Below, piece by piece: positions 3,658-53,300 of a DNA stretch of 64,000 bases (positions are counted from its first letter, which is position 1; each line of letters starts with the position of its first letter). Origin of the DNA: Thermodesulfobacteriota bacterium. GTDB taxonomy: Bacteria; Desulfobacterota; WTBG01; CAIYCZ01; CAIRTM01. Below the pieces are notes generated by a model. The model ran no database searches and had not been told where the DNA came from. It worked only from the letters and a program-made list of their open reading frames with translations. A program made the position numbers and the translations under genes. Location: contig JANQFE010000024.1 in assembly GCA_028278025.1 (NCBI GenBank), forward strand, positions 11,128-75,127, read 5' to 3'.

Positions 3658-5808
3658 ATGCAAAGCATTCTTTCCAGCAATACAGTGAAATCATTTATAG
3701 ATTATATTTCATTTCTGCGTGAAGATTTAGTGCTTACCAAAGATGTGTGCCTGGCCCGCAGCACTCCACAGGGTCCGGAAAAAATTGATGTGCTTTTTCC
3801 CAAAGGGAAAATAGAAGAAAATAAAATAGATGAAGCGTTCAGGCTACAGGAGGCAGACAAATGTGTACTTTTCTTTGAGAGTGATCTTTTCGATTACTTC
3901 AGTTTTAAAGAAAAAGCCCTGCTGAAATGTTTATACAGTGATGCAAAACAGGTGTTTACCTCTTATCCGCTTGCAGCAATTGACGTTGAAGAAATCAAGC
4001 AGGATTTTCTGGCCTTTATTGAAAACATGGATCATAAAAGCCCTACCCTTACCGATCTTCACAGAATCAAAGTTCTGGCCCCTTCAATGTATACCTCTGC
4101 TTTAGCAACCTCGCTCATCAGTATAATGATAAGTAAATACTTTGGTGAAACTACAGGCAGCATTTACTGGGATAAAAACAAAATTGCTTATGTTGGATAC
4201 GCAGGTCTCCTATGCAATATAAGTTTAAGTAAAGCAGGCATGTATGAGCTTCTTGACCTTGATTGTCAGGACCGAGATACTATTGAAAAAAAATATTCCT
4301 GGATAAGGATTAAGAATCACCCCAAGGAAAGTGCGGCTATTATTCTCAACGAGTTAACCCGGAGAACTCATGATGATGAAAGCAACAGGGAAATAAGTAA
4401 GGCGGTAGAGTTGCATCATGAAAACCTTGACGGGAGTGGTTATTATGGATTGACAGAAGAGTCTGTTCCTCCTGTCTCAAGAATACTCCGGGTTGCGGAA
4501 TGTTATAGTGCTATGACCAATGCAGGCTATATCAAAGCTAAAAATAAGATCAAACACATCTCTGAGGCCCTCGCCGAACTGCATCGTAGATCAGGTGCCT
4601 GGTATGATCCTGCAATAGTGGCTGTTTTTACCCATTTTTTTAAAGATAATAAAAAACTGCGCAAAGCCAATCCTTCTGAAAAAAGTGTTCTTTTCAAAAA
4701 TTACTTTCTTTTGGAAGATGCCCTTGTCAGGCAGGCAGAAAAGCTGAAAGGCAAAACAGAACAAAGGGAATTACATCATTTCAGATTGTCATTAAAGGAT
4801 CGATTAAAGCTCACCCATAACGCCCTGCTTAACCTGGAACACACGTATATAGCCAAACTGGTTACAGAAGCTGCTTTCATAGCTGCAAGTCATATTTTTC
4901 ATGAAGTAAATAATGCAACATCCATGATAACAGGCAGTTTTGATATGTTCTATGAGGACTTTTTACAGGACAATAAACACTGTATTGAAGATGAACGGGT
5001 GATGAGGGTAGCCGACGAATTAAAACACGTTATTTTCCTCATTAAAACTTCTTCACGGCTGAAGCAAGATCACCCCTGCCATACGAAATCAGATAAGCTG
5101 CTTGCCTTAAGAGGTTTAGAAATCGAGCAGCAACTTGAAAGCCTGCGCCGCTGTCTGATGCTGATAGACAAGATGTGCAGAACACTGCAAGCTCAACTCT
5201 ATTCAGATGCTGCTCAAGCCGGTTGCCCAAGGTTAGCCACTATAAGTGCTGAAGGCAAAAATTATCTCCAGGCTATGTTGTTAGGTGTACAGTCGGCATT
5301 AGAAAAAACCTATTTCTTTACTGAGCAGACAAAAAAAGAGTGTAATATTAATGTATTATTAGAACAGGCCCTCAAACTGATTCAGCGCAACCCCCTTTAT
5401 AGCACTCAAAGTCGTATCATCAACATAGAAAAAAACTTCAGTCCTGATATTATCGTTTCTATTTATCCGGTTCAGATTATGTGTGTTATTGAGAACATAC
5501 TCTACAATGCGTATCATGCCATGAAAGAATCGGGCGGCATACTGCAGGTCAGCACAGAATATAATGGTAAAACCGTTATCGTCATGATAAAAAATACCGG
5601 TCCTCGCATACCGACCCATGTGCTTGTTAACATGTTTACCCCCGGCTTTACAACTAAGCAAGAAAAAGAAGGCCGGGTTGGTGGTCGTGGATTTGGTCTT
5701 TCAAATTCACTGAATATCATGCGTGCTCATGGCGGAGATCTACGCTGTGTTTCAACCGATAGTGAAAAAACAGCGTTTTATCTGATTCTGCCTGGCAGGC
5801 TTCAATAA
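3658..5808 (+). CDS. Sensor histidine kinase fused to a degenerate HD-GYP-like domain
   Basis: Central 'THDDE...ELHHENLDGSGYYGL' matches the HD-GYP signature HHExxDGSGYP with GYY in place of GYP. Downstream H-box (SHIFHEVNNATS) and C-terminal HATPase_c (G-boxes: GGRGFGLSNS...AHGGDL). Confidence 0.7.
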   Translation: MQSILSSNTVKSFIDYISFLREDLVLTKDVCLARSTPQGPEKIDVLFPKGKIEENKIDEAFRLQEADKCVLFFESDLFDYFSFKEKALLKCLYSDAKQVFTSYPLAAIDVEEIKQDFLAFIENMDHKSPTLTDLHRIKVLAPSMYTSALATSLISIMISKYFGETTGSIYWDKNKIAYVGYAGLLCNISLSKAGMYELLDLDCQDRDTIEKKYSWIRIKNHPKESAAIILNELTRRTHDDESNREISKAVELHHENLDGSGYYGLTEESVPPVSRILRVAECYSAMTNAGYIKAKNKIKHISEALAELHRRSGAWYDPAIVAVFTHFFKDNKKLRKANPSEKSVLFKNYFLLEDALVRQAEKLKGKTEQRELHHFRLSLKDRLKLTHNALLNLEHTYIAKLVTEAAFIAASHIFHEVNNATSMITGSFDMFYEDFLQDNKHCIEDERVMRVADELKHVIFLIKTSSRLKQDHPCHTKSDKLLALRGLEIEQQLESLRRCLMLIDKMCRTLQAQLYSDAAQAGCPRLATISAEGKNYLQAMLLGVQSALEKTYFFTEQTKKECNINVLLEQALKLIQRNPLYSTQSRIINIEKNFSPDIIVSIYPVQIMCVIENILYNAYHAMKESGGILQVSTEYNGKTVIVMIKNTGPRIPTHVLVNMFTPGFTTKQEKEGRVGGRGFGLSNSLNIMRAHGGDLRCVSTDSEKTAFYLILPGRLQ

Positions 5809-14579: not shown

Positions 14580-14780
14580 TTAATCTATGGTAACATTAAC
14601 CGCTGCAGGACCTTTTTTCCCTTGCTCTATCTCAAAGGAAACCCGGTCGCCTTCATTGAGTGTTTTGAATCCGGTTGATTGGATTGCTGAATAATGCACA
14701 AACACATCCGGACCTTCTGCTTGCTCAATGAATCCGTAGCCCTTGCTGGAATTAAACCATTTCACCGTTCCATTAGCCAT
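14580..14780 (-). CDS. Cold-shock protein, CspA family
   Basis: [15 protein letters not shown]...VFVHYSAI: the RNP1/RNP2 motifs of a cold-shock domain. Confidence 0.9.
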
Positions 14781-37592: not shown

Positions 37593-38543
37593 TTACGGCT
37601 TTGCACCTGAAAAAAATCGCCGGGGATTCTCCTGCAGCACTGTCTGAATATGTTCATCAGCGGCACCGCCCTGTTTGAGCAGGGGGATAACCCGCTCGAA
37701 AAAGTTTGCAGGATGCCAGTTCTTATAGGGACCGGTACCGATTTTGGGTCCGCCTACCCAGTACCAGACCGAATCGTGGGAAACCATGAGGTGTGCGGCG
37801 CAGCCGGCTTCAATCAGCTTAAGCAGCGTGGCTGCGCGTACTTCATCGGACATACCGGGCATACCGAAACGGTCAAAGCCCAGATAGGAACCGCCCTGAA
37901 CGATGCCCATATGGTAGGCAAAATCGGTAGAGATACAGCTATGCCCGATCATAATACGGTGGGCCGGCACACCTGCGCTGCACAGTATCTGCTGCTGTTT
38001 GTCTCCAAGAATTCCTTCGGTATGGGTAATGATTGGTGCTCCGGTTTCCACCGAGGCTTTGGCCGCAGCCAGCAGCAACTCATGTTCAGCCTCACTGATC
38101 ACCGGCTGTCCGGTGACTACCTTAATGACAGCGGCTTTTACCCCGGTATCATTAATCCCCTCGGTAAGTTCCTTGATAAACAGAGCGGCTACCGCATCAG
38201 GGCTGTTGCCCAGGCGCTCGCGCACTTGTAAGTAGGTAGCTGTACTGTAAATGCCCGTAGCACAAAGAATATTATATCCTGTTTTTGTCGCAATCTCAAC
38301 CATCAGGGGAACGTTCCGGCCAAGATCAACAGTAGTGGGATCTACCAGGCTCTTTACTCCAAACCGGCTGATTTTTGAGACGTACTCGCAGCAGACAGAC
38401 ACAATCTCATCACGTTGGGGTCCGGGTTTGAGCATGTCGGCACCAGGCCCGCCGTACTGTACAAACACGTGCTCATGCATAAGCGTTCGACCGAGCTGAT
38501 CGGCCGTGATGGGTCCGGCAACAGTATTAACGGCATCATTCAT
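37593..38543 (-). CDS. Phosphotriesterase-family (PTE/Php) metal-dependent hydrolase
   Basis: GRTLMHEHV HxH motif, TIM-barrel amidohydrolase pattern; GGAGGAG ribosome-binding site before the ATG at 38543. Confidence 0.8.
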   Translation of the reverse strand: MNDAVNTVAGPITADQLGRTLMHEHVFVQYGGPGADMLKPGPQRDEIVSVCCEYVSKISRFGVKSLVDPTTVDLGRNVPLMVEIATKTGYNILCATGIYSTATYLQVRERLGNSPDAVAALFIKELTEGINDTGVKAAVIKVVTGQPVISEAEHELLLAAAKASVETGAPIITHTEGILGDKQQQILCSAGVPAHRIMIGHSCISTDFAYHMGIVQGGSYLGFDRFGMPGMSDEVRAATLLKLIEAGCAAHLMVSHDSVWYWVGGPKIGTGPYKNWHPANFFERVIPLLKQGGAADEHIQTVLQENPRRFFSGAKP

Positions 38544-38869
38544 ACAAATCTCCTCCAATATACCCGATAGGCTTTACATTGACAGAGCAAACCATATCAA
38601 AAGCTGTACTCTATAGCATACCTTCACTATGTTTGCTTTACTTATTTCACCATTGTTTATACCACTGTACAGATTAACGCAAAAAATATCAGTTTTTTTT
38701 CATTAATAGCAATGTATTTTCAAAGAATTTTACAATCTTTCACAACAGTAAGAACCCAGCTGGCTATATGCCGTGTCAGCTGTTTAGTTTTTTGTAGGAC
38801 TTGACCCGAATAAATTAATGCTTATTTTGTTAGTGAGGGAAATAAAAAACCCGTTAAGGAGGTAAAAAA

Positions 38870-39298
38870 ATGGCTTATTCATTAGTAAAATTAAAAAAGC
38901 CTTTTGATTTGCTGGCAAACTGGCCGGAATATATTAAAGTAATAAGTAATCATTTTGCCCAGCCTGAGGAAGCCGAGGTTTGGTCTCCAGCTATTGATGT
39001 AAAAGAAAGGGACGGAAAATATGTACTCAGGGCTGATTTGCCGGGTGTCAGAGCAGAGGACATTCAGGTTACCTATAAAAACGGCTACCTGACCATCAAG
39101 GGCAAAAGACGCAGGGACGAACGCAATGACTCTGACTTTAATCACATCAATGAACGATATTACGGCTCCTTTGAAAGAGTGCTGCAATTCCCTGGGGGAG
39201 TTAAAGAATCAGAAATTCAAAAAAAATACCAAAACGGCATTTTGGAACTTACCATTCCAATACCGCAGGAAGATTTCAAAGGAAATAAAGCTGTCTGA
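38870..39298 (+). CDS. Hsp20/alpha-crystallin small heat-shock protein
   Basis: Alpha-crystallin domain (DVKERDGKYVLRADLPGV...GILELTIP); AAGGAGG ribosome-binding site. Confidence 0.9.
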   Translation: MAYSLVKLKKPFDLLANWPEYIKVISNHFAQPEEAEVWSPAIDVKERDGKYVLRADLPGVRAEDIQVTYKNGYLTIKGKRRRDERNDSDFNHINERYYGSFERVLQFPGGVKESEIQKKYQNGILELTIPIPQEDFKGNKAV

Positions 39299-39318
39299 CA
39301 CACAGGAGGTTTTTTATT

Positions 39319-39579
39319 ATGAGAGATATTAAATACTACCTTCCCGGAATACTGTTAATTCTGATGGCTGTTGCAATTATAGCTATGCCTGAAATACTTG
39401 TAGCCCTTGTTGCAGCAATGGTTATCCTGGCCGGCATTGTTGCGCTGCGCATAGGGCACCTAATGAAAACATCACACGTAACTGTTGAGCCTAAAAGGGA
39501 TCTGTTTTTTGATGATGAGTTTTTTAACTGGCCCTTTGCAGCACGATCGGTATACAGCCGTTGGCGCAGAAGGCTCTAA
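39319..39579 (+). CDS. Small membrane protein co-transcribed with hsp20
   Basis: AGGAGG ribosome-binding site; two TM segments; followed by a strong terminator. Confidence 0.5.
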   Translation: MRDIKYYLPGILLILMAVAIIAMPEILVALVAAMVILAGIVALRIGHLMKTSHVTVEPKRDLFFDDEFFNWPFAARSVYSRWRRRL

Positions 39580-39621
39580 AACGCAACAATCTCTTTCCGG
39601 CTTACGGGAGAGTCTGAGATA

Positions 39622-39656
39622 TAAAAAAGGAACCATTTATGTGGTTCCTTTTTTAT
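39622..39656 (+). terminator. Rho-independent terminator of the hsp20 operon
   Basis: aaggaacca-tttatg-tggttcctt followed by ttttatt. Confidence 0.7.
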
Positions 39657-39796
39657 TAATACGGTTTTTTAAAACAAGAAACCGGACGCCTTCAACCGCA
39701 TTTACGGATTATATCAGCACCTCATTTATACAATGTTGTTAACATGCAAACAGTTTACTGATTGCTTCTTTACAAAAAGGGCCCCCGCTTCTACAG

Positions 39797-40081
39797 TTAA
39801 ATACCTTTTACCAGTTCATCAAACCTCTCAACCTCTACCGCAGGGGCCGTGGTAAAGCAGATTCCGGTCAGCCTGGTCAGGGCAACCGAGGCCTGCATGG
39901 CCTGTTCCAGGTCAGGCATATCCAGGATAAGAATCACGTCATGCACCCCCAGCATCGCATACATTGCCTTGAGCTCACCCCGGAGCTCTCTCACCAGACT
40001 GGCAACTGCTTCTGTACGCTCGGCACTGACTGCATTCAGTGATGCAACGGAATATTTGCCAAACATAAAAAAAGTAGCCAT
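39797..40081 (-). CDS. GYD-domain protein
   Basis: MATFFMFGKYS...DVILILDMPD...FTTAPAVEVERFDE matches the GYD family pattern; GAGGTG ribosome-binding site 7 nt upstream. Confidence 0.55.
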   Translation of the reverse strand: MATFFMFGKYSVASLNAVSAERTEAVASLVRELRGELKAMYAMLGVHDVILILDMPDLEQAMQASVALTRLTGICFTTAPAVEVERFDELVKGI

Positions 40082-40131
40082 AATAATCACCTCTGTGTTT
40101 TGTAAATTGTTATTAGCAATGAGAGTCATTA

Positions 40132-40222
40132 GACCGGATTAACATGATAAACAGGATATTGTTTTCAATAGGGCAACGGCCATATTGAAAAATCATGTCA
40201 ATCCGGTATGTCCTGTCAAAAA
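40132..40222. repeat. Palindromic MITE/REP-like element, full copy (family A, subtype 1)
   Basis: Near-identical to 20269..20360. Confidence 0.7.
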
Positions 40223-40252
40223 AATAAACATCTGTTTTCCGTTTCACGTGAC

Positions 40253-42553
40253 TCAACCAAACAGCTTGCGAAAAAGACCGGTTGCCGGACCGGGCCAGCG
40301 CCGTACCACCATAACCGGACCGGGGCAGGAGCGGGCAACTCTTTCAGGGATATCACCTGCCACCATCTTTACAAACGGCCGGCCGGCTGCCGCACCCACA
40401 ACTACCAGCTCAAACTCCTGCGAGGCTTTTGCAATGCCTGCGGCAATTGATCCTGATTTGACTATATAACGGCCGATCTTTACCTGTGGATCAAGCGTTT
40501 TCAATGACTTACTGATCCTTTCCAAGGCAGCCTCCTGTCCGGCCCGGTCTGCCTTTTCAGGCACGACCACGCATGCATCAACGCTGGCACCGTAGTGCCC
40601 GGCAATATCGCGGGCAAAGGCAGCTCCCAGAGTGGCATGCGGGCCGCCCGAGGTTGCCAGCAGAATACGGCTGATGGTATCTGCTGAGTCTGCCTTGATA
40701 ACGGCAACATCGCAGGGACAGTGCCGCAGCATATAGTCGGTAATCTCCCCAAAAATATGATGGTGCTGCTGAGGAAAACCCTTCCAGCCCATTACGAGCA
40801 GGTTACAGTGGTGATCTTGAACCGAATCAAGCATGGCATGACTGAGTGAGTGTGCCACCCTCAAATCGCCCCGCAGGTCCGCTCCAAGCTCCAGGGCGCA
40901 GGCCTGGGCCTCCCTGATCAGGGGACGGCGTTGATCAACCAAAACAACCCCCTCGTGTATAGGAAGCTGTTCAGGCACCACGGCCACTGTGAGGGCCACA
41001 ATCTCACCGTTGCGGGGAATGCTGAGGGCCGCTGCAATACTGATCAGGTAGCGTACCGTAGCCGGGTTGTGCAAGGGCACAAGTACACGGAAGCGCTCCC
41101 GCTGCTCCGGTGGTGTGGTTTTTTCCAGCCGCAGCACCAGCGGCCTACGGGCCTTAATCTTATGCTGAAACAGCGCAATATACAAAAAGAGCCCCACAGC
41201 AGTCCAGCCCCCCACTATAGTCCAGGGAATCCTGTCAAAGCGATACTGAAAGACAGCCAGCAGCAGATTAATAACGAAGCCCAGCAGGGGTAAAACCGGA
41301 TACAGGGGCATTGTGTAACGGCGTTTCAGAGCAGGTTGTTTACGGCGCAGCGCCACTACAGCCAAGTTGACCATCGCAAAAACCAGCAGAAACATGACGC
41401 TGGCTGCTGAGCCCAACAGGCTGATCGGCAAGCAAACCGCTACAATAAGAAACAGTACCCCAGTTATCAGGATGGCAATATGCGGGGTGCGCAGGCGTGC
41501 ATGGATTGCTGCAAGCCTGGGCGGCAGCCATTCGTTGCGAGCCATGGAAAACGCCACCCGGGAGGATGCCATGATCGTGGCATTAAGCGCACTCATGGTG
41601 GAGAGCAGACCGCCCATCACGATCAAAAACGCACCGGCCGCAGGCATCATCTTGGCTGCCACCCTGATTATGCCGGTTTCCTGATATTTGCCTAAAAACT
41701 CCCAGGAAGGCATGTCTCCGGGGTGAACCGCGCCGAGGGAGACAAAAATAACGCACAGGTATATCAGCACAGTTACGCCCACCGACACAAAAATAGCTCG
41801 GGGAATATTTTTTTCAGGCTCTTTTATCTCCTCGGCCACCGTGGCAATCAGATCATAGCCTTCAAAGGCAATAAAGGTAAGGCCCATGGCAATAAAAACG
41901 CTGCCGATTCCCTGCGGAAAAAACGGTTTAAACTCGGCTTTGGCTGCCGGCACATCACCGATAATTGCCTCAATACCAAAGATAATAAACACGACCAGTA
42001 CGGCAACCTTGGCGACCACAATCACATTTTCGGTCTTACCCGTAATCATGGCGCCCCGCACATTCAGGGACACAAAGGTAACGCCTCCCAGGATAATCAT
42101 TGCCACCACCGCAGCCTGCTCCCCGGCAAGGCCGACCAGCAGGCCGTGGGTACCGGGAAGGTAACAGCCCAAAAACTCCATCAGGTAGGCCCCGAATCCG
42201 GCTGCATACAAGGCGCAGGCCACCGTGTAGGCAAACCAGAGCCACCATCCGGCCACAAATGCAAAAACATCGGGGAATGCATATTTAACATAGGAATACC
42301 CCCCGCCGGACTCGGGAATTGAAGAGGCCAGCTCGGCATAGGCAAACGCCGTGATCAGGGTTATCAGTCCGTTCAGGGCGAACGCCAGCAGGGAAGCCGG
42401 TCCTGATACTCCGGCCGCAATACCCGTGAGCACAAAAATGCCGGCACCGATCATGGCGCCTATGCCGATCATCGTGGCGTCAAAAAAACCCAGGCTGCGG
42501 TCAAAGGTAACCTGCAGTTCTTTTCTGTCAGCCTTGTTGTTTTTTAGAGTCAT
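40253..42553 (-). CDS. APC-family amino-acid permease fused to C-terminal tandem universal stress protein (UspA) domains
   Basis: 12-TM APC core (GIGAMIGAGIFVLTG...); ~300-aa C-terminus with two Usp-like alpha/beta domains (VLVPLHNP..., ILLATSGGPHA...VVVGAAAG). Confidence 0.85.
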   Translation of the reverse strand: MTLKNNKADRKELQVTFDRSLGFFDATMIGIGAMIGAGIFVLTGIAAGVSGPASLLAFALNGLITLITAFAYAELASSIPESGGGYSYVKYAFPDVFAFVAGWWLWFAYTVACALYAAGFGAYLMEFLGCYLPGTHGLLVGLAGEQAAVVAMIILGGVTFVSLNVRGAMITGKTENVIVVAKVAVLVVFIIFGIEAIIGDVPAAKAEFKPFFPQGIGSVFIAMGLTFIAFEGYDLIATVAEEIKEPEKNIPRAIFVSVGVTVLIYLCVIFVSLGAVHPGDMPSWEFLGKYQETGIIRVAAKMMPAAGAFLIVMGGLLSTMSALNATIMASSRVAFSMARNEWLPPRLAAIHARLRTPHIAILITGVLFLIVAVCLPISLLGSAASVMFLLVFAMVNLAVVALRRKQPALKRRYTMPLYPVLPLLGFVINLLLAVFQYRFDRIPWTIVGGWTAVGLFLYIALFQHKIKARRPLVLRLEKTTPPEQRERFRVLVPLHNPATVRYLISIAAALSIPRNGEIVALTVAVVPEQLPIHEGVVLVDQRRPLIREAQACALELGADLRGDLRVAHSLSHAMLDSVQDHHCNLLVMGWKGFPQQHHHIFGEITDYMLRHCPCDVAVIKADSADTISRILLATSGGPHATLGAAFARDIAGHYGASVDACVVVPEKADRAGQEAALERISKSLKTLDPQVKIGRYIVKSGSIAAGIAKASQEFELVVVGAAAGRPFVKMVAGDIPERVARSCPGPVMVVRRWPGPATGLFRKLFG

Positions 42554-43323
42554 ATAGTAAATGTAGGGCTGGTCTCAGTACTGTGGGATCCCTTCCCAGC
42601 TACCCCGCTGACGCCATACCATGTTTCACCATGATGTATAGCGTCACACGTTACTGTGTCAGTTCATCGGTAAGGGTCTTTGGTTTTGAGCAGCAAGGGG
42701 TGTATCCCGGGTGCCGTCACTCTCCCGGTCCCACAACACAAACAGGGTCCTGATGAGGAAGGTGTCCAGTTTACACAGCCTGTTGTTGTATTACCGGCAG
42801 GAACCGTCACCTGTTTGGTACCTACAGAGACATTCCAATACCCAGTTCGGCGGCACCGAAGTTAAGCGACACTGTTTGGGAACTGCCGGTAGAATTCTGC
42901 GTTTCATAGCCCAGCTGTGTGCTTTGACCGGAGACCGCGGGTTCCGGATCAACTGAGATATCCTCATCAATGTATTCTGATATAACATATCCCTGTGCCG
43001 GACCGGCTGCCGTCAACAAAAAAAAGAGCGGCAGCCATTGTTACATGAAAAAGTGCTCTGCTTGTTTCCAGGGGCATCCCCTCCCCCTGTGTTCTTTATT
43101 TATAAGTGGTAATGTATACATTATGAAAACATTTTGTGCCTGAAAAGCGCTTTTTATACTAAAAAACAGCTTCCCCCTGATGCATTGTTTGGGCTGCTTC
43201 TCAATGCCGGCTAATAGTAGCAAAAAGGAATTTGGTTTGGCAAGAAAAAGAAATCAGAGGCAGATTATAGAAAAAAAGCCTTGCCTGAAAGCGAGGCTTT
43301 GAAAAAATCTCTGGAAAAGGATG

Positions 43324-43400
43324 TATTTTTTTTCGTTAAACTTAATTTGCTTTGCCTTTACTCATACCTTCCTTACTCCCTGGGTTGTATTAATAATACT
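43324..43400 (-). pseudogene. Duplicated 5' fragment of a csp gene (leader plus first ~6 codons, frameshifted)
   Basis: ~75 bp is ~90% identical to the 5' UTR and start of csp at 46775 (tttttttcgttaaac...tttgcctttactcata.cttc.ttactcc.t.ggttgt.ttaataatact); the coding remnant reads MSKGKAN*. Confidence 0.5.
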
Positions 43401-43431
43401 TTTATATCTCTGTGCCGAATCAAATCCGGTG

Positions 43432-43701
43432 CTACCGTCTTTTGTGCTTACTGTTCTGCGACCTGGCTTCGGCTACGATAAGCTTATTACCATCAAGTTC
43501 CACCCCTTTGCAAATTTTAACAACCTCCCGGGCCTCTTCGGCAGTGGCCATCTCAACAAAAGCAAAACCCTTCGAGCGGCCGGTCTCCTTGTCCCTGATA
43601 ATCTTTGCCGATATACAGTTCCCCAGATCACCAAAATTATCCAGGAGGTCCTCCTCAGTGGTTTCTTCGGTCAGATTGCCCACATATAGTCTATTAGTCA
43701 T
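43432..43701 (-). CDS. RRM-type RNA-binding protein
   Basis: RNP2 LYVGNL, RNP1 KGFAFVEM. Confidence 0.85.
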   Translation of the reverse strand: MTNRLYVGNLTEETTEEDLLDNFGDLGNCISAKIIRDKETGRSKGFAFVEMATAEEAREVVKICKGVELDGNKLIVAEARSQNSKHKRR

Positions 43702-43763
43702 ATCCCTTCCCCCATACTGTAAAAATTACCGGTTTGCATGGCGCATAGACCGGCGTATACTAT

Positions 43764-45716
43764 TCACACCAGGCTTGCTGCCAGCCCCTCAACATTTATG
43801 AACACCTCAAAATGACTCCGTGCATAGGCAATCACATCTGCCATATCTGTGCGCAGGGACTCAATACTGATGAAGGTAATTCGTTTTTGATATCCTCGCA
43901 ACTGCTTCAAAAACACAAGCAGCGCTGTGCGCTCCGTGGTGGTTACCCCGCTGAAATTAAGCGCCAGATTGCCCTTCTGCTCTTTTAAATACGTTTCGAT
44001 TCTGTTTTTCAGCTTCATGGCCGTCACCCTGTTAAAAACACCTTTCAGATCAACAATAAGGGGATGATGGGCCTTGTGCTGAGGTCTGTGCCGAATGCTC
44101 AAGATACCATTACCGCTAAGTTCTGCCGGAGCCAGCCGTGTGGCGGCCATGCGGTATTCAGTACGCTGGAGCCGTGCCTGGGGATAGGAACCATGGGCAA
44201 GCTTTACTTTTTCTGCAAACGCAAACAGTGGGACAAGTGTTGATAAAAACTTGTTTTTTACTCCGCCGGAACCTATTTCCTTCAAGATGGCCCGCTGAAC
44301 CTGTCTGATCTGCTGGGCAACCTCGTGCGTAGGGGCATAGCGCACTGCTGTGGGAAACAGGGGCAGAGCTTCAAGGCAGCCTGTGCGGTACTGATCAGCC
44401 CGCATCTGCAGCAGGGGGTCAGAAGAATCTCTGAACTTCAGGTATCCATTCAACTGGGTTGCCACATATCGTATTACCGAAGGCCCCAGCCGACGATATT
44501 CAGCCTCATAAACATCCAGAATCAGCTGCTCCATTTCCTGCTTGCTGATATGGGGATGGTCAAACACCAGATGAAAGCCGTCCCAATGCTTGTAGGGAAC
44601 ATCAGGCAGCAGCCTGCCTTCCCGCTTGAGCCGCTCAAACAGAGGTGTGCTGCAGGCTGCGCTCAGGATAAGAAACTGGCTCAGGCTCGGTCTGAGGGAT
44701 ATGAGATATTCAAAATCTTCCCACACTGATTCAACCGTATGGAAGTCATGCCCTATGATAAGTGAAGCCAGGGTATTGATACCGTGGGCCTGGAGCCGGT
44801 CAAAAATCTTTTTCAGATCGCGGCCCTGCAATTTGGCATAGGTTGCCCGGCTTGATTCCACTCCGATCCAGAGCGACTCAACACCCATGCTGACCAGATC
44901 CTCGGGGTCCCATTGCTCTACGGAGCATGCGCTGGCAAAACAGGAAATTTTTATCGGCTCCTGTCTATCCTCCCGCACACACGCCAAAAACTCACGGGCG
45001 CGCTTTTTCTGCATCAGAAAATCTTCTTCAATGATGCCGATGGGTAGATTTGGATTGTCCAGGGTCCTGTGGACCCTTCTGATTTCACGGTGCAAATCCC
45101 GGCCGGTTTCTAAAAGAGGAATATGGCGCTGCTTATGGAAGTGCGATGTTGCACAGAATTCACAGCCGTGGGGACAGCCGAGCCCTCCCAGCACAACGGC
45201 TCCCTTCATAATCGGGATGCCGGCAATTTTACCTCTGGTGGGATAGACAACATGCTGTGCGGGTTTATCAATGTGGTCCTCTCCCAAAAGCCGCCGCATA
45301 AAGCCGACTCCCTCTTCCCGGCAGATATAATCACCATACTGGTCGCATTCCGGCAGCATGGTTCCGTATCCGCCCAGAATTATACGAGCCTCCGGGGCCA
45401 CCCTGCGTACCATGCGACACATTTTTTTCATCTTGGCAAACGTCGCAATCACGAAGCTGATCCCGACATAATCATAGCCTTTGGCAAGCTCACGTTTAAA
45501 CTGTTGCATGGTGGGGTACTGCAGCACTGTTGTCGGAGTAGCTATATTATTGGCGATATATTCCAGGCCGTAGGAGATATAGGACACCCGGGGGCTGAAA
45601 ATTCCCTGGGCCCGTGTTACCTGGGCATGGAACAGTTCAGGCATGACATGCTCGGTGCAATCATCAGTATTAGCCCCGAATGGTCCGCATACTGTCGTCA
45701 GAAGTATTTTTTTCAT
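43764..45716 (-). CDS. B12-binding radical SAM protein with a C-terminal STAS (anti-sigma-antagonist-like) domain
   Basis: N-terminal cobalamin-binding Rossmann domain, CPHGCEFC radical SAM motif; last ~110 aa (LIVDLKGVF...LALNFSGVTTTERTALLVFLKQL...FEVFINVEGL) matches the SpoIIAA/STAS pattern. Confidence 0.75.
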   Translation of the reverse strand: MKKILLTTVCGPFGANTDDCTEHVMPELFHAQVTRAQGIFSPRVSYISYGLEYIANNIATPTTVLQYPTMQQFKRELAKGYDYVGISFVIATFAKMKKMCRMVRRVAPEARIILGGYGTMLPECDQYGDYICREEGVGFMRRLLGEDHIDKPAQHVVYPTRGKIAGIPIMKGAVVLGGLGCPHGCEFCATSHFHKQRHIPLLETGRDLHREIRRVHRTLDNPNLPIGIIEEDFLMQKKRAREFLACVREDRQEPIKISCFASACSVEQWDPEDLVSMGVESLWIGVESSRATYAKLQGRDLKKIFDRLQAHGINTLASLIIGHDFHTVESVWEDFEYLISLRPSLSQFLILSAACSTPLFERLKREGRLLPDVPYKHWDGFHLVFDHPHISKQEMEQLILDVYEAEYRRLGPSVIRYVATQLNGYLKFRDSSDPLLQMRADQYRTGCLEALPLFPTAVRYAPTHEVAQQIRQVQRAILKEIGSGGVKNKFLSTLVPLFAFAEKVKLAHGSYPQARLQRTEYRMAATRLAPAELSGNGILSIRHRPQHKAHHPLIVDLKGVFNRVTAMKLKNRIETYLKEQKGNLALNFSGVTTTERTALLVFLKQLRGYQKRITFISIESLRTDMADVIAYARSHFEVFINVEGLAASLV

Positions 45717-46053
45717 TATGCTTTTCCTTGTGCGCGAGAATCTGGAGCACAGGCATGCAGAACTGCAACAGGGACTGTTCAGCCCGGGGGGCTGTATCCG
45801 CGCGTCGGGGGCAGATCACCCCGGCCGCTGCGGCAATCACAGCTGCCCTGCTAGGCCTGTCTGTTAAGCGTGATGCGTATAGCACTTTTGGGGAAGGGTA
45901 AAAAGAGACCAGAAAAAAAGGGCGCTCAGAACCATTGGGCCAGGGATGTTTGTCATTCTCCTGCTCCGTTAGCCTGTAGAAAAAACAAAAAAGACAAAGA
46001 AGCCATTCCCTGAAAACAAAGTGTATACCAATAATGTTTGTAGCCGGCCCGGC

Positions 46054-46359
46054 TTAATACCGGCCGCGTCCTCTGGGGCCCCCACCCGATCTGCGGGAAG
46101 AGTCCCGGTCCCGTCTGGGTCTGGCTTCATTTACGGTGAGCTTTCGGCTGCCCAGCTCAGTACCATTTAATTTTTTGATAGCTTCCTGGGCATCCTCCTC
46201 ACGGGCCATTTCCACAAAGCCGAAACCTTTCGACTGTCCTGAGAATTTATCCGTGATAATGTTTACCGAGATACACTCTCCAATTTCTTCAAAGCTTTTC
46301 TTTAATGTCTCTTCGGTTACCTCATAGGACAGGTTCCCGACATACAGATTTTTGGCCAT
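46054..46359 (-). CDS. RRM-type RNA-binding protein with an RG-rich tail
   Basis: LYVGNLS / KGFGFVEM; C-terminal RRDRDSSRRSGGGPRGRGRY. Confidence 0.85.
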   Translation of the reverse strand: MAKNLYVGNLSYEVTEETLKKSFEEIGECISVNIITDKFSGQSKGFGFVEMAREEDAQEAIKKLNGTELGSRKLTVNEARPRRDRDSSRRSGGGPRGRGRY

Positions 46360-46574
46360 TGATGCTCCTTTATGCGTGTGTTGTTATCCTGTTGCTCCCG
46401 TACAAGGGAGCCGGCAGATTACCGATCGGATTGTCGCTCATTACCGCACCGATTAAGACAATCTCCTCGTCATCACCCCAATGCATACCGCCGTTTGAAA
46501 GCCCCGGTCGGTTGTGCCTTGTTAGGCTGCATGATTTTTTGCAGCATTTGCGGTTTGTTACTGCAATGTGTTGT

Positions 46575-46775
46575 TTATAAGGCCCTGACTTTTAATGCCT
46601 GCAGACCCTTGTTACCCTCGGTAACTTCAAAGGTTACCTCATCACCGTCTGACAGGCTTTTGAATCCCTGTCCTTCTATAGCGCTGTAGTGTACAAACAC
46701 ATCGCCATGCTCTTCAGATTCAATAAAGCCAAATCCTTTTTTTTCGTTAAACCATTTTACTTTGCCTTTACTCAT
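46575..46775 (-). CDS. Cold-shock protein, CspA family
   Basis: [16 protein letters not shown]...VFVHYSAI. Confidence 0.9.
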
Positions 46776-47340
46776 AACTTCTTACTCCTTAGGTTGTGTT
46801 AATAATACTGTAACATTCATACTGTTTTCCTTATTATATAAAAATGTTTGGTAAGTGCCGCCTGATCGTATAGTATTTCTTCCAAAAAAAAAACCCGCGG
46901 GATTATCAAAATCCCGTGGGCTCTAATATATTAAAACTTCCTGGATTTTAGACTAATACGGCACGATGCTTCTTTTTACTTAAGATAACATATACCTAAA
47001 AAAAAGACGTGTGTCAATGCATAATTTCCCCTGCCGAAGAAAAAGTCTTACTGTTTGTGAAAAACACTCCTGCAAAACAAAGCCGCCCTGCTAACCACTG
47101 GAAACCACTTTGTTGTTTGGTGATTCGTAATTAGAGAATCGTTAATAGATCGCTTTTCTTGGGGAGCATTCTGACTTTGTCAGAATTCGAGGAGCGCTGC
47201 GCTTCAGGTATGAGGGTTGTATCCTCAAGGCCAGAGGCCGATCTTTAAATCCCGCTTCAGCAGTATGATCCTCAAACTCAACCAGCAATCCCGCCTGTGG
47301 CGGGACCTATGCTCCGCTCCGGCCAGCAACAAATAAAACC

Positions 47341-47394
47341 AGTTCCGCTTCACACTTTACGCTTCTGGTTTGACGTTATTAATCCAGTATCCAG
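47341..47394. repeat. ~54-bp direct repeat copy 1 (family C)
   Basis: gttccgcttcacactttacgcttctggtttgacgttattaatccagtatccag is ~95% identical to 49657..49711. Confidence 0.65.
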
Positions 47395-47426
47395 TTTTCT
47401 CAATACTCGTTACTCGGTACTATTTT

Positions 47427-48755
47427 TTATTCCACCCCCCACACATGTACCACGGCTGCGTTTTCGTTGGTATGACCTCCAAAGCCCTTCTCTATCATAA
47501 AAACCCGCTGGCCTGCACTGTCTACGGCTATGCCGCCCACTTCCCCGCAGGTATGCCCGGCAGCATCGCCCAGGTGGAATTCCGCGGGTCTCCAGATTTC
47601 ATACGGCACAACACCCCAGGCATCACGGCTGCCCAGGGCAACCTCGCCCAGCTCATCTACATCATAGAAGATCACCTGGCGCTCGAAAGGATCACAGTGA
47701 TACCCCTGACTATCCTGACAGGCATCAGAACTCGAGGGAGCACCATAGCTGTTATCACCCAGTCCCTTAATACCCAGAAGCACTATAGACCTTTTGTCGC
47801 CGCTTTCTATAAAAGCGCCGCCTTCCCATTTATCGCACATGGTAAAATCAGGAAAGTCACACTGGGAGGGGTCTCCCACGTTGGGCCCGGCGCACTCCGG
47901 GTAGTATATGTTGTACCACAGCATCGGAACTGCATCCAAATCACCACTGGGCTCCTCGCTGTCCCAGGGACGAAAAGCAAACAGCGTGGGCCCCTGCGAG
48001 CCGTTAAATGCCCCGCGGGTTTTGCCCGTGACAAGTGTTCGGCCCCCGAGATACATATTAGCATAGGATTGGGGTACGCTGAAAAGGTAGTCTCCGCATT
48101 TGTTGCCGTGATAGGGCAACTCTTCAGGCCCCACATGATAGAGTCCGCGCGCATGTGATCCATCCATGTCGGAAATCCAGACAGTCCTGTGGCTGTCATC
48201 AACCACACCATACCAGTAATCCAGCGTTCCATAGAGTTTATCGCTTGTCTGGGAGCCCTGCCGCGGCACAACAGCTATACCGCTTACAACGGCAAACTCC
48301 GCATCAAAGTTTTCATTCTGCCTGCTGTACTGCTCCACCAGGCCCCCGTCAAAATTGGTCATTGCGGTAAGCACGGCAGCTTCAGGCAGATCCTGCCAGT
48401 TGGACGCGGTTGATGGTTGCGGAATTGAGAGTTCGGCAAACTCCGGTTCGTTCAGATCAAATCCGGTCACCAGCAGGGAACCAGAGCCCCCGTTGCCGGT
48501 TTCGTAGTAGGCCATACCTCGGGATCCCCAGTTGCACTCCTCCGGCAGACGAAAAGCTCCCTGATAGGTAAAATCTGTTGACTGGAGCCGCTCTGAAGGA
48601 GTTACCGTAACAGTTGTGGTGGTTGTTGTTGACAGGTCGCTGGTAGTGGTTGTCGTGGTTTCATTATCGGGACCGCCGCCCCAATCACAACCGGGGGAAA
48701 AAACAAACATACATACTGCGGGAATAATTGCAATAATTGTGGCCTTTGTTTTCAT
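47427..48755 (-). CDS. Secreted lipoprotein with a poly-Thr linker, function unknown
   Basis: Signal peptide plus lipobox (FSPGC), TTTTTTSDLSTTTTTT linker; GGAGG ribosome-binding site. Confidence 0.6.
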   Translation of the reverse strand: MKTKATIIAIIPAVCMFVFSPGCDWGGGPDNETTTTTTSDLSTTTTTTVTVTPSERLQSTDFTYQGAFRLPEECNWGSRGMAYYETGNGGSGSLLVTGFDLNEPEFAELSIPQPSTASNWQDLPEAAVLTAMTNFDGGLVEQYSRQNENFDAEFAVVSGIAVVPRQGSQTSDKLYGTLDYWYGVVDDSHRTVWISDMDGSHARGLYHVGPEELPYHGNKCGDYLFSVPQSYANMYLGGRTLVTGKTRGAFNGSQGPTLFAFRPWDSEEPSGDLDAVPMLWYNIYYPECAGPNVGDPSQCDFPDFTMCDKWEGGAFIESGDKRSIVLLGIKGLGDNSYGAPSSSDACQDSQGYHCDPFERQVIFYDVDELGEVALGSRDAWGVVPYEIWRPAEFHLGDAAGHTCGEVGGIAVDSAGQRVFMIEKGFGGHTNENAAVVHVWGVE

Positions 48756-49023
48756 AATATACCTCCTCTGGTATGTCTGTTTTTCGTATTAATTGACATA
48801 AAAGGGAACGGAAGCTGACAACGCCTGTAATTGTCTCTACAGATATCCCTTGTACAAGCATTGTAATAATTTTTACCATCTTCTTTCAAGCTTTTTGTAT
48901 ATCGCAAAAAGCCTGTGCTGTCCCTGTTTGTTACGACCGGCAATAATGTAATTTTATGTTTATAATATATACTGTCTATGATACATACATAAAAATCAGA
49001 ACACCCTATCATGAGGTAAAAAA

Positions 49024-49594
49024 AATGGTCACCTGTGAACGTGAAAAACTTGCCGAGGAAGAAAAAAGGCTCATAGCTCCCTGTGGAATCTATTGCGGAG
49101 CCTGTGATATTTTCCTGGGCAAAAGCATGCACCTGGCCAGGGAGCTGCACCGGATACTTGATGGGTTTAATCTCACCGACGTTGCTCCCTTTGTGCTGGA
49201 AGCAGAGCAGGAGCAGGCCAGGGATTTCCTGGCAATCCTTAAAAAATGGGGCAGCGGCAAACAATGTCCCGGCTGCATCAAGGGAGGCGGCAATCCCGAC
49301 TGCCCCATAGAGGCCTGTGCCAAGGAAAAGGGCCTATATACCTGTGCAGAATGCGAACGGATGCCCTGTTCACCGGACGAACGGAATGAGGACCCCTTCA
49401 GCCCGGAGTCACTGCTGGGCCTGATCACAAAACGATATTCGGGCTGGAATATTGAAAACCTGAAGCGTATCCGGGAAATCGGCTATCGCCGGTTTATCGA
49501 TGAAACGCAGGCAAAGGTAAGGGCCGGGTTTTTGACAAGCGATGTGATATCACCTGAAATGGTTATGACTGAGTGTTTTAATAAAATGAAATAA
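49024..49594 (+). CDS. Cys-rich protein, DUF3795-like
   Basis: APCGIYCGACDIF...CPGCIKGGGNPDCPIEACAKEKGLYTCAECERMPC; GAGGTAAAAAAA ribosome-binding site before the ATG at 49024. Confidence 0.5.
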
Positions 49595-49656
49595 GCCACC
49601 CGAACCACCTCACGGTGTGGTATTTGGTTTTTGGCAAATCGTTAACAGATCGCCTA

Positions 49657-49711
49657 GTTCCCGCTTCACACTTTACGCTTCTTGTTTGACGTTATTAATC
49701 CAGTATCTAGC
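49657..49711. repeat. ~54-bp direct repeat copy 2 (family C)
   Basis: gttcccgcttcacactttacgcttcttgtttgacgttattaatccagtatctag. Confidence 0.65.
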
Positions 49712-49995
49712 ATCCCCGACCCTATCGAGATCTTCGCTGCGCTCCGACAAGCAACTGACAACTGATGTTTTTATAACTTTAGGCACTTTCTTTACCTTTC
49801 TCATTACTACTTGTTTAAGCTTAGTAATTTTTGAACCCTCAAGGGTCAGGTTATACATAAGCCCTTTATTTGAGGCCACAACAGCAATAGTCGGCTTATT
49901 GAGCGTTTCTGTGTCCAGGGTACCGCCGGCACCGAATGTAGCTATGGCAACTGAGCCTTCAGCACCGACCTTCCAGCCTTCGCTTTCACGAAAAT
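49673..49995 (-). pseudogene. 3' fragment of a SYLF/Ysc84-domain gene with no start codon, abutting repeat elements
   Basis: The frame reads ...EGWKVGAEGSVAIATFGAGGTLDTETLNKPTIAVVASNKGLMYNLTLEGSKITKL (SYLF-like G-rich beta motifs) and opens directly after a TAG with no in-frame start. The C-terminus is encoded by repeat family C. A MITE copy lies immediately upstream. Confidence 0.3.
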
Positions 49996-50010
49996 GTAAC
50001 TACTTTTTCT

Positions 50011-50120
50011 GACCGGATTTACAGGATTAACATGATGTTTCAAAAGGGCTGACGCCATGTTGAAAACAGCAATCCTGTACAACTCTGAGTAAAGTCGCAG
50101 GATTATTCCTGTCTAACAGA
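50011..50120. repeat. Palindromic MITE/REP-like element (family A, subtype 2)
   Basis: gaccggatttacaggattaacatgatgtttcaaaagggctgacgccatgttgaaaacagcaatcctgtac...cctgtctaacag; shares both arms with the 58310 copy. Confidence 0.6.
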
Positions 50121-50315
50121 ATCAACGAACACCATCTGATATTTTATTATTAATTGTTATATTTTTTGTTGTTACATCCGATAGTTAGACTATTGAGCGT
50201 AACAGTGAAACGAGCCGCATCCAGTGATTGCGCGGGGCAGCATCTTGCAAAATACTGCAAAGGACTGTTCCCGTAAAACATACAATAAAATATTTCATGC
50301 ACAGAAAGGCTCATC

Positions 50316-53300
50316 ATGCATAAAAAACAAACAAAATGTTTTTTTCAGAAAGTTGTTTTTTTAGCGTTTTTTACTGTTTTTTTGATCTTTATGCTGCTTC
50401 CGGCTTCTTTCAGCTTTGCCCGGCAAACCATTAAAAAAAGCCGGGACATAACCGCACCGGCTGCCCAGCGTGACCCTACGACAACTACCACGACCAGGGA
50501 ATTAACCACTACCACGATCGGCCGTGAGACTACCACCACAACAACAACCAGGGAATTAAGCACCACGACGTCTGTACCCGATACTACTACCACTATTGTA
50601 TTTGATACCTCCACTACGACCTCGGTAGCAACACTGCCGACCACAACAACAACTGCGTCCCGTGATACCTCTACTACCACAACTGCGGTCCTTGATACCA
50701 CCACGACAACTACCGCGGCCGTGGCAGCGGCCACAGATTGCCAGTCAGCCAAAGATAACGCTCAGATCATCTGCTGCACGGATGCTGTATCCGCTCCTGT
50801 TCCTGACAACCTCGACTATGTATCACTGACAAACTGCGAAACCGGTGAAGTTGAGTCGTTTGCCTGTGTCCATGATCCCGCTACCGGATCAGAGCTGGCT
50901 ACCGAGACCACCGTGACTGAAGGGGCCGCTGAGGATTATTCCAGCCCTGAATGTCAGGCAGCCCTTGATGATGTTGCAGACTACTGTGCTGAGCAAGATG
51001 AAAACTGGCATGAGGATCATACCTATACCCTTGAATGCGAATCCGTAAAAACCGCGGTTTACCCGCTCTGTGATGACCTGCAGATGATCAGCGAAATCGG
51101 TTGTCCCGAATGGCCGGGCCTGGAAGTACTGCAACGTATTTTTGAAGGCACCACCGAAGGCCCGCCGATCCAGATACCGATTCCCACGCCTGAGGAAACG
51201 CCGTTTGAAGAACTGGAGAGCGACGCTGCCGCAAAACCCGGCGCCGACATGGATCAGTTTACCCAGCTTATGGATAATGAGACCGCTTTGAAAGAAAAGG
51301 AAGACCAGAAGCTCAGGATCGAAATACCGGGTAATTTCATACGCTATATGATGGCACGGACGTTCTTTAAAAAAGCCCTTGAAATGATGGATGGCCAGGA
51401 TGGTTTTGAATGCGAGCCGGATGAGCTGGAGTGCTCCATCGATCCCCTTGAGCTTGCTGATTTATCTCCCTTTTTAACGATTGATAAAGAGAACTTTAAG
51501 CTGTCAGCCAAAAAAGCCTCCTATGGCTACCGATTATACGACCTGTGGGCCGGTGAGGAGGATTCTGTATACATACAGTGGTCCGGGGAAATCAGGGTTG
51601 AAACCAGCTCTAAAATGAAGCTTGACTTGAAGGATAATGCTACCCTGGCGGTTATACCGCTGCATGAACCCGACGCGGCAAACGGATACTCAACCGATGT
51701 TGAGGTCTCTGAGCGCTGGCTTGACCGGGCACAGTTGGTACTCGAGCTGCCTGATGACCGGTGCAGTCCGCTCCAGGGTAACCAATATAACGATAAGTAC
51801 ATTACCTGGACGACACCCTTTTCATGCAACTGCACGGGAAATGACGCCGGTAAGACCAACTATTGTGTTGTGGACCCGTATGAACGGGAGGAATCAGAAA
51901 TTAACATAGATGATCTTGAAAGCGCGGGTGCTGATCTGGTTGAAGTCGTCTGCACCGATCCGCTCACAACGGCTGAAGGTGAAAACCTGTCCGAATATCT
52001 TTCTAACCAGGGATATTCCGATGAGTTTGTTGCCCAGGTCATCACCACGCTGCGGGATTTTGGCTGTGCCGGCCGGACCGTTACCCGTGTAGCTACCGAG
52101 GAGGGTTTGATAACCTCGGCCATCGGTCTTGAGTTTACCAATATTATGGACCTCGGCGCACTGCAGGCCACCATGGAGCCCGGTATTTTCACGATCAAAT
52201 TTCCGTTTTTCGGTACTGCCATTCAGTATCTCGAAAAAACCTGGTGGGGCTGGCTGTTCAGCTGGATTATCGAGATCATTCAAAAACTGCTTGAAGCTAT
52301 TATCAGTGCCAAGGGAACACTTCTCTTAAATGTCCTTGTCAATACGGCAAGTGCTTCCCTGGGCGACCAGGAAATGCTGCTCCACGGCGTGATCAGCCAC
52401 AGCCTGGGCACAGATGACAGTGATCCTGATATAAGCATCGGGCTGCGGCGGCTGGCAACGGATGCGCCTGAAGTGAAGATCACCAATTTCGGTTTTTCCT
52501 GGGAAACGCCCTCATGTGACAGTATGGACGGCCCCGAGGACCTCCTGAACCTGATTACCTGTCCATTTGAAATCCTGGTCAATCTGCTGAAATATGTGCT
52601 GTCCCCCATCACCAATCTGCTGCTCACCCTGGCAGATCATATGTTTGATCTGATGAATTTTATTAATGATGAAATTTCAGGTGTCGTTATTAATGAAGTG
52701 GCTAAAATAGAAGACAGTAACCAGATAGCCGCGCTCATCAAAGGCACGGTTGTCTCAACCAGCACCAATCCCTATTATCTGGCCGAAGAATACGCTGATC
52801 AGGAACAGCTGGGCCAGCTGCTGGGAGTTGTGACGGATTCCCTGCCCGTTCTGCAGGATCTGGCCAAAACCATTCCTCCGCCGCTGGTGCAGCTTTGTCT
52901 GCTGGCTGGAAACAGCGACACTGCCGGCGGCGTTGCCTGCCAGATTGTCAAGATTTTTGCCGGCGGCTTTGATGTCGACTCCGGCAGCAAGGGGGTCAAT
53001 GAGGTCCGGGTCGATATACCGCGCCTGGGCGCCAAAACACATTACCGCAGCATGGCTGATTTTGAAGAACTGTCAAGTATGCTCAATGACGACCTGCCGC
53101 CGGTACGGTTCTGTCTGCCGGGAGACAATCCTCCCGGGTCCGAGGTATATGATCAGGATGACCTGCTGATCCTGACCGATTTTAATGAAATTGATATCTC
53201 CGATGAGGAAAGCGCCAAACCGCATGACTGGCGAACCCAGTCGGCCCTGTTCCTGGATCTCAAGGCCCACGGACAGCTCTCCATCCCGGGCCTGGCATCA

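Follow-up and report, generated by a model that had tools for sequence, protein, structure and literature searches.

A csp gene truncated to its leader and first codons downstream of an RRM gene in a Thermodesulfobacteriota bacterium: a probable decaying remnant

Why does a short copy of the beginning of a cold-shock gene lie between an RNA-binding protein gene and a transporter gene, 3.4 kb away from the intact gene that it resembles? The question is raised by a 64,000-nt stretch of a Thermodesulfobacteriota genome (hereafter, the window), in which the first-pass annotation, made from the sequence alone, had noted a duplicate of about 75 bp, at 43324-43400, of the leader and start region of a csp gene. 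The locus, which is encoded on the minus strand throughout, starts with the intact 66-aa csp gene (csp46775; leader 46776-46816, CDS 46575-46775; Pfam CSD E = 3.1e-28), which is located upstream of a gene for a 101-aa RRM protein (RRM2, 46359-46054). These are followed by a gene for a 650-aa B12-binding radical SAM protein (45716-43764), an intact gene for an 89-aa RRM-type RNA-binding protein (RRM1, 43432-43701; Pfam RRM_1 E = 6.6e-21), the short csp-like element (hereafter, the orphan), a terminator-like hairpin, a stretch of 717 nt without a convincing gene (42554-43270) and an APC/Usp transporter gene (42553-40253). The answer that we favor, with a probability of roughly 0.88, is that a csp gene was formerly located directly downstream of RRM1 and that the orphan is its 5' stump, an ordinary decaying remnant.

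The relationship between the orphan and csp46775 is readily detected at the nucleotide level. In a blastn search, positions 43400-43326 (minus strand) align with positions 46809-46737 of csp46775 with 66 of the 75 positions identical and two one-base gaps (E = 3e-20), so that the reported duplicate is real, with the identity adjusted from the approximately 90% given at first to 88%. The MAFFT alignment and a repeat search agree with this pairing, which is the single non-self match in the entire 64-kb window for a query spanning 43300-43440 on the minus strand, and the 64 kb contain exactly two occurrences of the 16-mer ATGAGTAAAGGCAAAG from the start region, at 43350-43365 and 46760-46775. The matching segment consists of about 35 nt of the 5' leader, including the Shine-Dalgarno (SD) sequence AGGGAGTAAGGAAGG (43366-43400, minus strand, aligned with 46776-46809 of the intact gene, with weaker similarity extending to about 43407), the ATG and a total of 13 codons (43326-43365, minus strand). 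The similarity breaks off sharply 3' of a run of eight A residues, TTTAACGAAAAAAAA, which encodes K12-K13, right before the RNP1 codons for KGFGFI. With csp46775 as the query, tblastn missed the orphan: its matches in the window were limited to the csp genes at 46775 and 14780.

Within these 13 codons, the reading frame is disrupted. The orphan reads ATG AGT AAA GGC AAA GCA AAT TAA, which yields the mini-ORF MSKGKAN* (43365-43342, minus strand). Both this reading and the frameshift were correctly noted in the first-pass annotation; the main lesion, instead, is the loss of everything past codon 13. When the orphan is aligned with five intact csp genes, all five have the same segment GTAAAATGG, encoding V-K-W, whereas the orphan has GCAAATTAAG, a change that amounts to three substitutions and one inserted base (+1) and that creates the stop codon, with TAA in place of TGG. 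Following GCAAATTAAG, homology picks up again through the A run and then ends before the RNP1 motif GFGFI, so at least about 160 nt of the coding sequence are missing. Compared with a complete cold-shock domain gene, with an ORF of about 65-70 aa containing RNP1 (KGFGFI) and RNP2, the orphan retains 13 homologous codons only, with a stop at codon 8, and its similarity ends after the codons for K12-K13, without the two RNP motifs.

The position of the orphan is that of an intact csp gene in the relatives that we found. In the closest of these, a JGI metagenome contig (L002) in which the radical SAM protein is 80% identical to that of the window, the radical SAM gene is followed by a gene for an 89-aa RRM protein (73% amino acid identity to RRM1), an intact 66-aa csp gene and a DEAD-box helicase gene. 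The distance from the RRM stop codon to the csp ATG is 61 nt in L002, compared with 66 nt from the RRM1 stop codon to the orphan ATG in the window. In a second lineage, represented by contigs L112 and L113, the gene order is RRM (77% identity to RRM1), csp, DEAD-box helicase and BipA. Thus, the comparison with relatives that the first-pass annotation had proposed reveals that, in L002 and in L112/L113, the orthologous RRM gene is immediately followed by an intact csp gene, and of the origins suggested there, that of a remnant of a lost csp gene is borne out. The same comparison indicates that the fragment is probably not the duplicate that it was taken for because it holds the RRM-csp position of both relatives.

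None of the relatives found in the collections searched is close. In the protein collection, homologs of the radical SAM protein top out at 80% identity, and in an exact-sequence look-up the radical SAM protein, RRM1, csp46775 and the transporter are each the sole member of the respective 90% cluster. A search of genome contigs for the radical SAM protein yielded 16 loci, none of them above 78% identity and none with an RRM-csp pair downstream. The search of metagenome contigs with RRM1 was dominated by generic RRM genes, and among the matches listed only one (L022, 65%) was moderately close; its arrangement differs, with two consecutive RRM genes followed by csp. The relatives that we found, none of which is closer than about 80% amino acid identity, carry at this position an intact csp gene rather than a fragment.

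The csp genes of L002 and L112 allow the changes in the orphan to be polarized. The orphan and csp46775 differ at nine positions (seven substitutions and two insertions), and all nine fall in columns where the three intact orthologs, csp46775 and those of L002 and L112, agree with one another, which implies that all these changes arose on the orphan branch; in the comparison of the four sequences, no column is changed in csp46775 alone. Under equal rates, the probability that nine of nine changes fall on one branch is, by simple arithmetic, 0.5^9, or about 0.002. The leader accounts for five of these nine changes, one of which falls in the SD core while another alters the SD-ATG spacing by 1 nt, and the leader and the coding stump have diverged about equally (approximately 10% each). 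Given these changes at invariant leader positions, the leader has been kept no better than the dead coding stump. Conversely, in all 15 columns that are variable among the three intact genes, the orphan is identical to csp46775, and csp46775 and the L002 gene agree at only 36 of the 67 third-codon positions, so that the two copies in the window were separated or homogenized long after the split from L002. Judging from these columns, the separation of the orphan from csp46775 is recent, and decay has since affected only the orphan.

The orphan is, therefore, hardly distinguishable from a typical bacterial pseudogene left by deletion after duplication: homology, disabling lesions, a syntenic intact ortholog and substitutions confined to one branch, with relaxed constraint, are all observed. 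Nothing essential differs, apart from the orphan being very short (about 80 nt) and retaining an SD and an ATG, with a seven-codon ORF that is translatable.

The intact copy, csp46775, shares 91% amino acid identity with the L002 protein, and its leader is homologous to that of the L002 gene over about 50 nt. The two genes also have 13 identical bases across the stop codon (TATAAACAACACA), with a score that was reached by 24 of 500 shuffles. In terms of sequence, csp46775 could be either a recent copy of the RRM1-linked csp gene or its recent gene conversion partner. Under the simplest reading, the RRM1-linked gene would have been copied to the site upstream of RRM2, or would have exchanged sequence with a paralog there, after which the original would have been deleted as redundant.

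Apart from the history of the two copies, we noticed several features in the vicinity of csp46775. Upstream of it (about 47016-46885, minus strand), there is a promoter-like site, with TTGACA, a spacer of about 17-18 nt and TATATG, followed some 100 nt later by a strong hairpin with a T10 run typical of a terminator (stem 46916-46898). This promoter/hairpin unit could be a small RNA or, alternatively, part of a long, terminator-containing csp46775 leader, a possible target of Csp-type antitermination. Farther upstream, a two-part intergenic repeat consists of 47345-47394 and 49661-49710 (50 nt, 96%) along with 47103-47153 and 49603-49653 (51 nt, 71%); the spacing between the two parts is a few nucleotides in one copy and about 190 nt in the other. 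No further copies were found in the window, and there was no Rfam match.

An indication of how much was lost at the 3' side of the orphan comes from the sequence past the junction. Positions 43275-43325 (minus strand) show a weak collinear match to the 3' untranslated region (UTR) of the L002 csp gene (51 nt at 69%, blastn E = 0.014 against an L002 subject of about 1.9 kb), with a local alignment score that was reached by 7 of 500 and by 6 of 300 shuffles (p about 0.02); none of the eight other csp genes that were compared matches this sequence in its 3' flank. The match is suggestive of a retained csp 3' UTR, which this segment may be, and hints that some 200 bp were lost internally, with the 3' UTR being spared. 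The size of the deletion is uncertain, and a larger one, which would have taken the csp gene from codon 14 on along with a downstream DEAD-box helicase gene, is conceivable. There is no DEAD-box helicase gene anywhere in the 64 kb, and no DEAD-box remnant or other sequence resembling L002 or L112 was found in 42554-43340.

A hairpin resembling an intrinsic terminator (AAAGCCU.CGC....GGC.AGGCUUU), followed by a U run, is located past the junction (43270-43300, minus strand), with the hairpin proper at 43300-43275 and the U run extending to 43270. It appears in both the minimum free energy and the centroid folds and was not listed by a consensus terminator scanner, probably owing to the 1x1 internal mismatch in the stem. 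When the 3' UTR of the L002 csp gene was folded, no clear terminator homologous to this hairpin was seen. Between the RRM1 stop codon and the orphan (43431-43400), no sigma-70-like promoter was predicted by a consensus scan, of the kind that a promoter may escape, and there is no terminator. The hairpin and U run are, by these predictions, likely to form the 3' end of the RRM1 transcript. With neither a promoter nor a terminator before the orphan and the hairpin after it, the stump most likely travels as a passive part of the RRM1 3' UTR, which would probably be about 160 nt long. The seven-codon ORF, with its SD and ATG intact, may be translated, encoding nothing useful. In the fold of the RRM1 3' UTR, the orphan SD pairs with CCUUUUCC just past the junction; we gave no weight to this pairing given that the fold (z = -1.5) is no better than those of shuffled sequences.

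Within the 717-nt stretch downstream of the hairpin, we noted a 65-aa TTG-start ORF (43019-42822) without a Pfam hit, a promoter-like site at 43243-43214 and, around 43040-43005, a perfect inverted repeat of 8 bp, GGCTGCCG...CGGCAGCC.

The leader itself appears to differ from the known regulatory leaders of csp genes. The first-pass annotation assumed that csp leaders are long cold-box RNAs, and this does not appear to hold here. The homologous part that is common to the orphan, csp46775, L002 and L112 is only about 35-50 nt, and the fold of the csp46775 leader (-4.8 kcal/mol, z = +1.4) predicts that it is unstructured. The Rfam cspA thermoregulator model (RF01766) scores 14.5 bits on the intact csp46775 region, against a threshold of 78 bits (E = 1.6), and does not hit the orphan (42500-47300, E <= 5). 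At the Rfam gathering thresholds, there is no match in the whole window, and a search of 42500-47300 at E <= 5 yielded chance-level matches only. In Escherichia coli, by contrast, the leaders of cold-inducible csp genes are 145-160 nt long and contain a cold box, and a downstream box is located 14 bases after the start codon (PMC6719143). The likeness to the E. coli cspA-type 5' UTR lies in the part of a CspA-family gene concerned, namely, its leader and first codons, which in E. coli carry the regulatory signals; the mutations in the orphan are concentrated early in the coding sequence, the part of the gene that holds the downstream box in E. coli. The csp genes of this orthogroup are preceded in three lineages by a conserved short AU-rich motif, approximately ATTATTAACACAA..TAAGGAGTAAG.A.TTATG, that is predicted to be unstructured (46776-46816, minus strand, in the window, 10290-10334 in L002 and 1752-1795 in L112). 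This motif may act in translation or cold regulation as a signal that is specific to the lineage and different from the enterobacterial cold box.

Several other explanations of the orphan have to be weighed against an ordinary remnant. That the match is due to chance, to the generic initiation context of highly expressed genes or to an assembly artefact joining two csp copies is hardly credible. Admittedly, the 5' coding part of csp genes is highly conserved, to the extent that GTAAAATGGTTTAACGA, for example, is common to five intact csp genes of different lineages. However, apart from the E-value of 3e-20, the match takes in 35 nt of non-coding leader, and the orphan and csp46775 share the lineage-specific synonymous states AGT AAA GGC, against ACC AAG GGT in L002. 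Furthermore, when the 130 nt upstream of the collected csp genes were compared, no leader similarity was found for the other csp gene in the window (14592-14780) or for more distant csp genes, and the orphan-type leader is common, besides csp46775, only to the L002 and L112 genes. We thus rejected a generic similarity of ribosome-binding sites and start codons, the possibility against which the first-pass annotation had set its own reading. We rejected mis-assembly as well: contig L001 of an independent Logan assembly is identical to positions 37764-51716 of the window (13,953 nt, zero mismatches), orphan included, which makes a mis-join unlikely, and the nine differences from csp46775 speak against a collapsed or chimeric repeat. 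Another candidate that we considered and rejected is a leader-peptide attenuator, in which the seven-codon ORF along with the hairpin and U run would govern whether transcription continues into the APC/Usp transporter gene. Such an architecture is reminiscent of the combination found here, a short ORF with a strong SD and a terminator-like hairpin 42 nt later, but the transporter gene begins 717 nt past the terminator, with the promoter-like site at 43243-43214 in between. Besides, the ORF is a mutated csp start rather than a conserved leader peptide, and the fold of the RRM1 3' UTR, with the z-score given above, shows no competing antiterminator; we consider this reading extremely improbable.

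A functional role of the stump itself deserves a closer look. The stump could have been kept as a regulatory RNA, either within the RRM1 3' UTR or as a short transcript of its own, that would titrate Csp proteins or cold-adapted ribosomes and, as a natural decoy, would tune the cold-shock response or the stability of the RRM1 mRNA. The leader, SD and ATG are still recognizable and are followed by a terminator, and the leader motif, being conserved across csp orthologs of three lineages, is presumably functional in the intact genes. Effects of this kind are reportedly on record for E. coli, where the cspA 5' UTR is said, in work by Jiang, Fang and Inouye in 1996, to play a part in adaptation to cold shock, and where truncated or nonsense cspA mRNAs reportedly trap ribosomes at low temperature, as described by Xia, Etchegaray and Inouye in 2001. 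The orphan has an architecture like that of the truncated or nonsense cspA constructs, namely, a csp leader, an SD, an ATG, a few codons and a premature stop. Those constructs, however, are reportedly engineered, strongly expressed and toxic, whereas no promoter of its own was detected for the orphan. The mutations also point away from conservation for a regulatory role: five of the nine changes affect parts of the leader that do not vary among the three closest intact orthologs, with one of the five in the SD core and another shifting the SD-ATG spacing by 1 nt, and the divergence of the leader equals that of the stump, at about 10%. The predicted lack of structure in the leader of the intact gene leaves no structural element to be preserved, the consensus scan reveals no promoter-like site upstream, no Rfam family matches, and the sampled relatives have the intact gene, rather than the fragment, at this position. 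We therefore regard a regulatory RNA as very unlikely, and the proposal of the first-pass annotation that the fragment is a decoy or cis-regulatory element is unsupported since the changes at invariant leader positions follow a pattern of decay. A more specific version, in which the stump has been co-opted as a translatable csp leader and mini-ORF in the RRM1 3' UTR that competes for Csp proteins or cold-adapted ribosomes, strikes us as most improbable. If it were true, the co-opted stump would couple the fate of the RRM1 mRNA to Csp levels and would be a natural counterpart of the effects engineered with the E. coli cspA 5' UTR and truncated cspA.

The wider context of the locus is a recurring cold-shock neighborhood. 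Like known clusters of csp, RRM (Rbp) and DEAD-box genes, it belongs to a gene string that is found as RRM-csp-DEAD in L002 and L112/L113; unlike in those contigs, the RRM1-linked csp of the window is a stump and the 64 kb lack the helicase gene. In addition, a same-strand csp-RRM pair, in this order, as formed by csp46775 and RRM2 in the window (46054-46775), is found in unrelated metagenome contigs, with a gap of about 175-240 nt in L024, L031, L045 and L063 and of about 565 nt in L109-L111. The genes for csp and RRM RNA chaperones seem to be habitually linked.

The radical SAM gene (43764-45716, minus strand) also repeatedly adjoins csp, RRM or DEAD-box genes, as seen in L002, L003, L005, L006, L013, L014, L017, L104 and L107. 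This uncharacterized gene matches no curated NCBIfam family, and some of its homologs have a C-terminal STAS_2 domain. The metagenome-assembled genomes with such radical SAM/cold-shock adjacency are labeled as Thermodesulfobacteriota, delta proteobacterium, Proteobacteria and Chitinivibrionales. This repeated linkage in several phyla is a hint that the radical SAM gene possibly has a cold-related role. In L004 and L005, the radical SAM gene is followed by a gene for a 1450-aa BcrAD_BadFG+DUF2229 protein. In two other contigs, small ORFs share the pattern ..ER..L.QALHC.KTS.QW..AT..YN: in L107, such an ORF (4391-4603, 70 aa) is located just after the radical SAM gene, and in L104 (4316-4480, 54 aa) after the RRM gene that follows the radical SAM gene. 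Such an ORF, of which we found no counterpart in the window, could encode a peptide that serves the radical SAM enzyme as a partner or substrate.

Taken together, the observations are best accounted for by a csp gene that was lost in place. The homology of the stump to csp genes, its position behind RRM1, its truncation after codon 13 and its one-sided decay are observed directly, and from these we infer that it has no function of its own. The ancestral state would have been a cold-shock gene string, RRM-csp, possibly with the DEAD-box helicase gene, as the relatives still have it. A second, near-identical csp gene, csp46775, would then have arisen 3.4 kb away by recent duplication or gene conversion, after which the RRM1-linked copy would have lost everything past codon 13 by deletion. 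Free of constraint, the stump would subsequently have gained the +1 insertion, the stop codon and further substitutions.

In practical terms, the appropriate annotation of the region is a csp pseudogene fragment rather than a small ORF or candidate regulatory RNA. The stump is another instance of a well-known kind of gene remnant, of little importance beyond annotation, and the more useful by-product of the analysis is the genomic context of the radical SAM gene, which may deserve a separate look. As for the cold-shock genes, the locus is a small example of duplicate-then-lose turnover within a cold-shock gene cluster, in which the polarized substitutions reveal which of the two copies is decaying.
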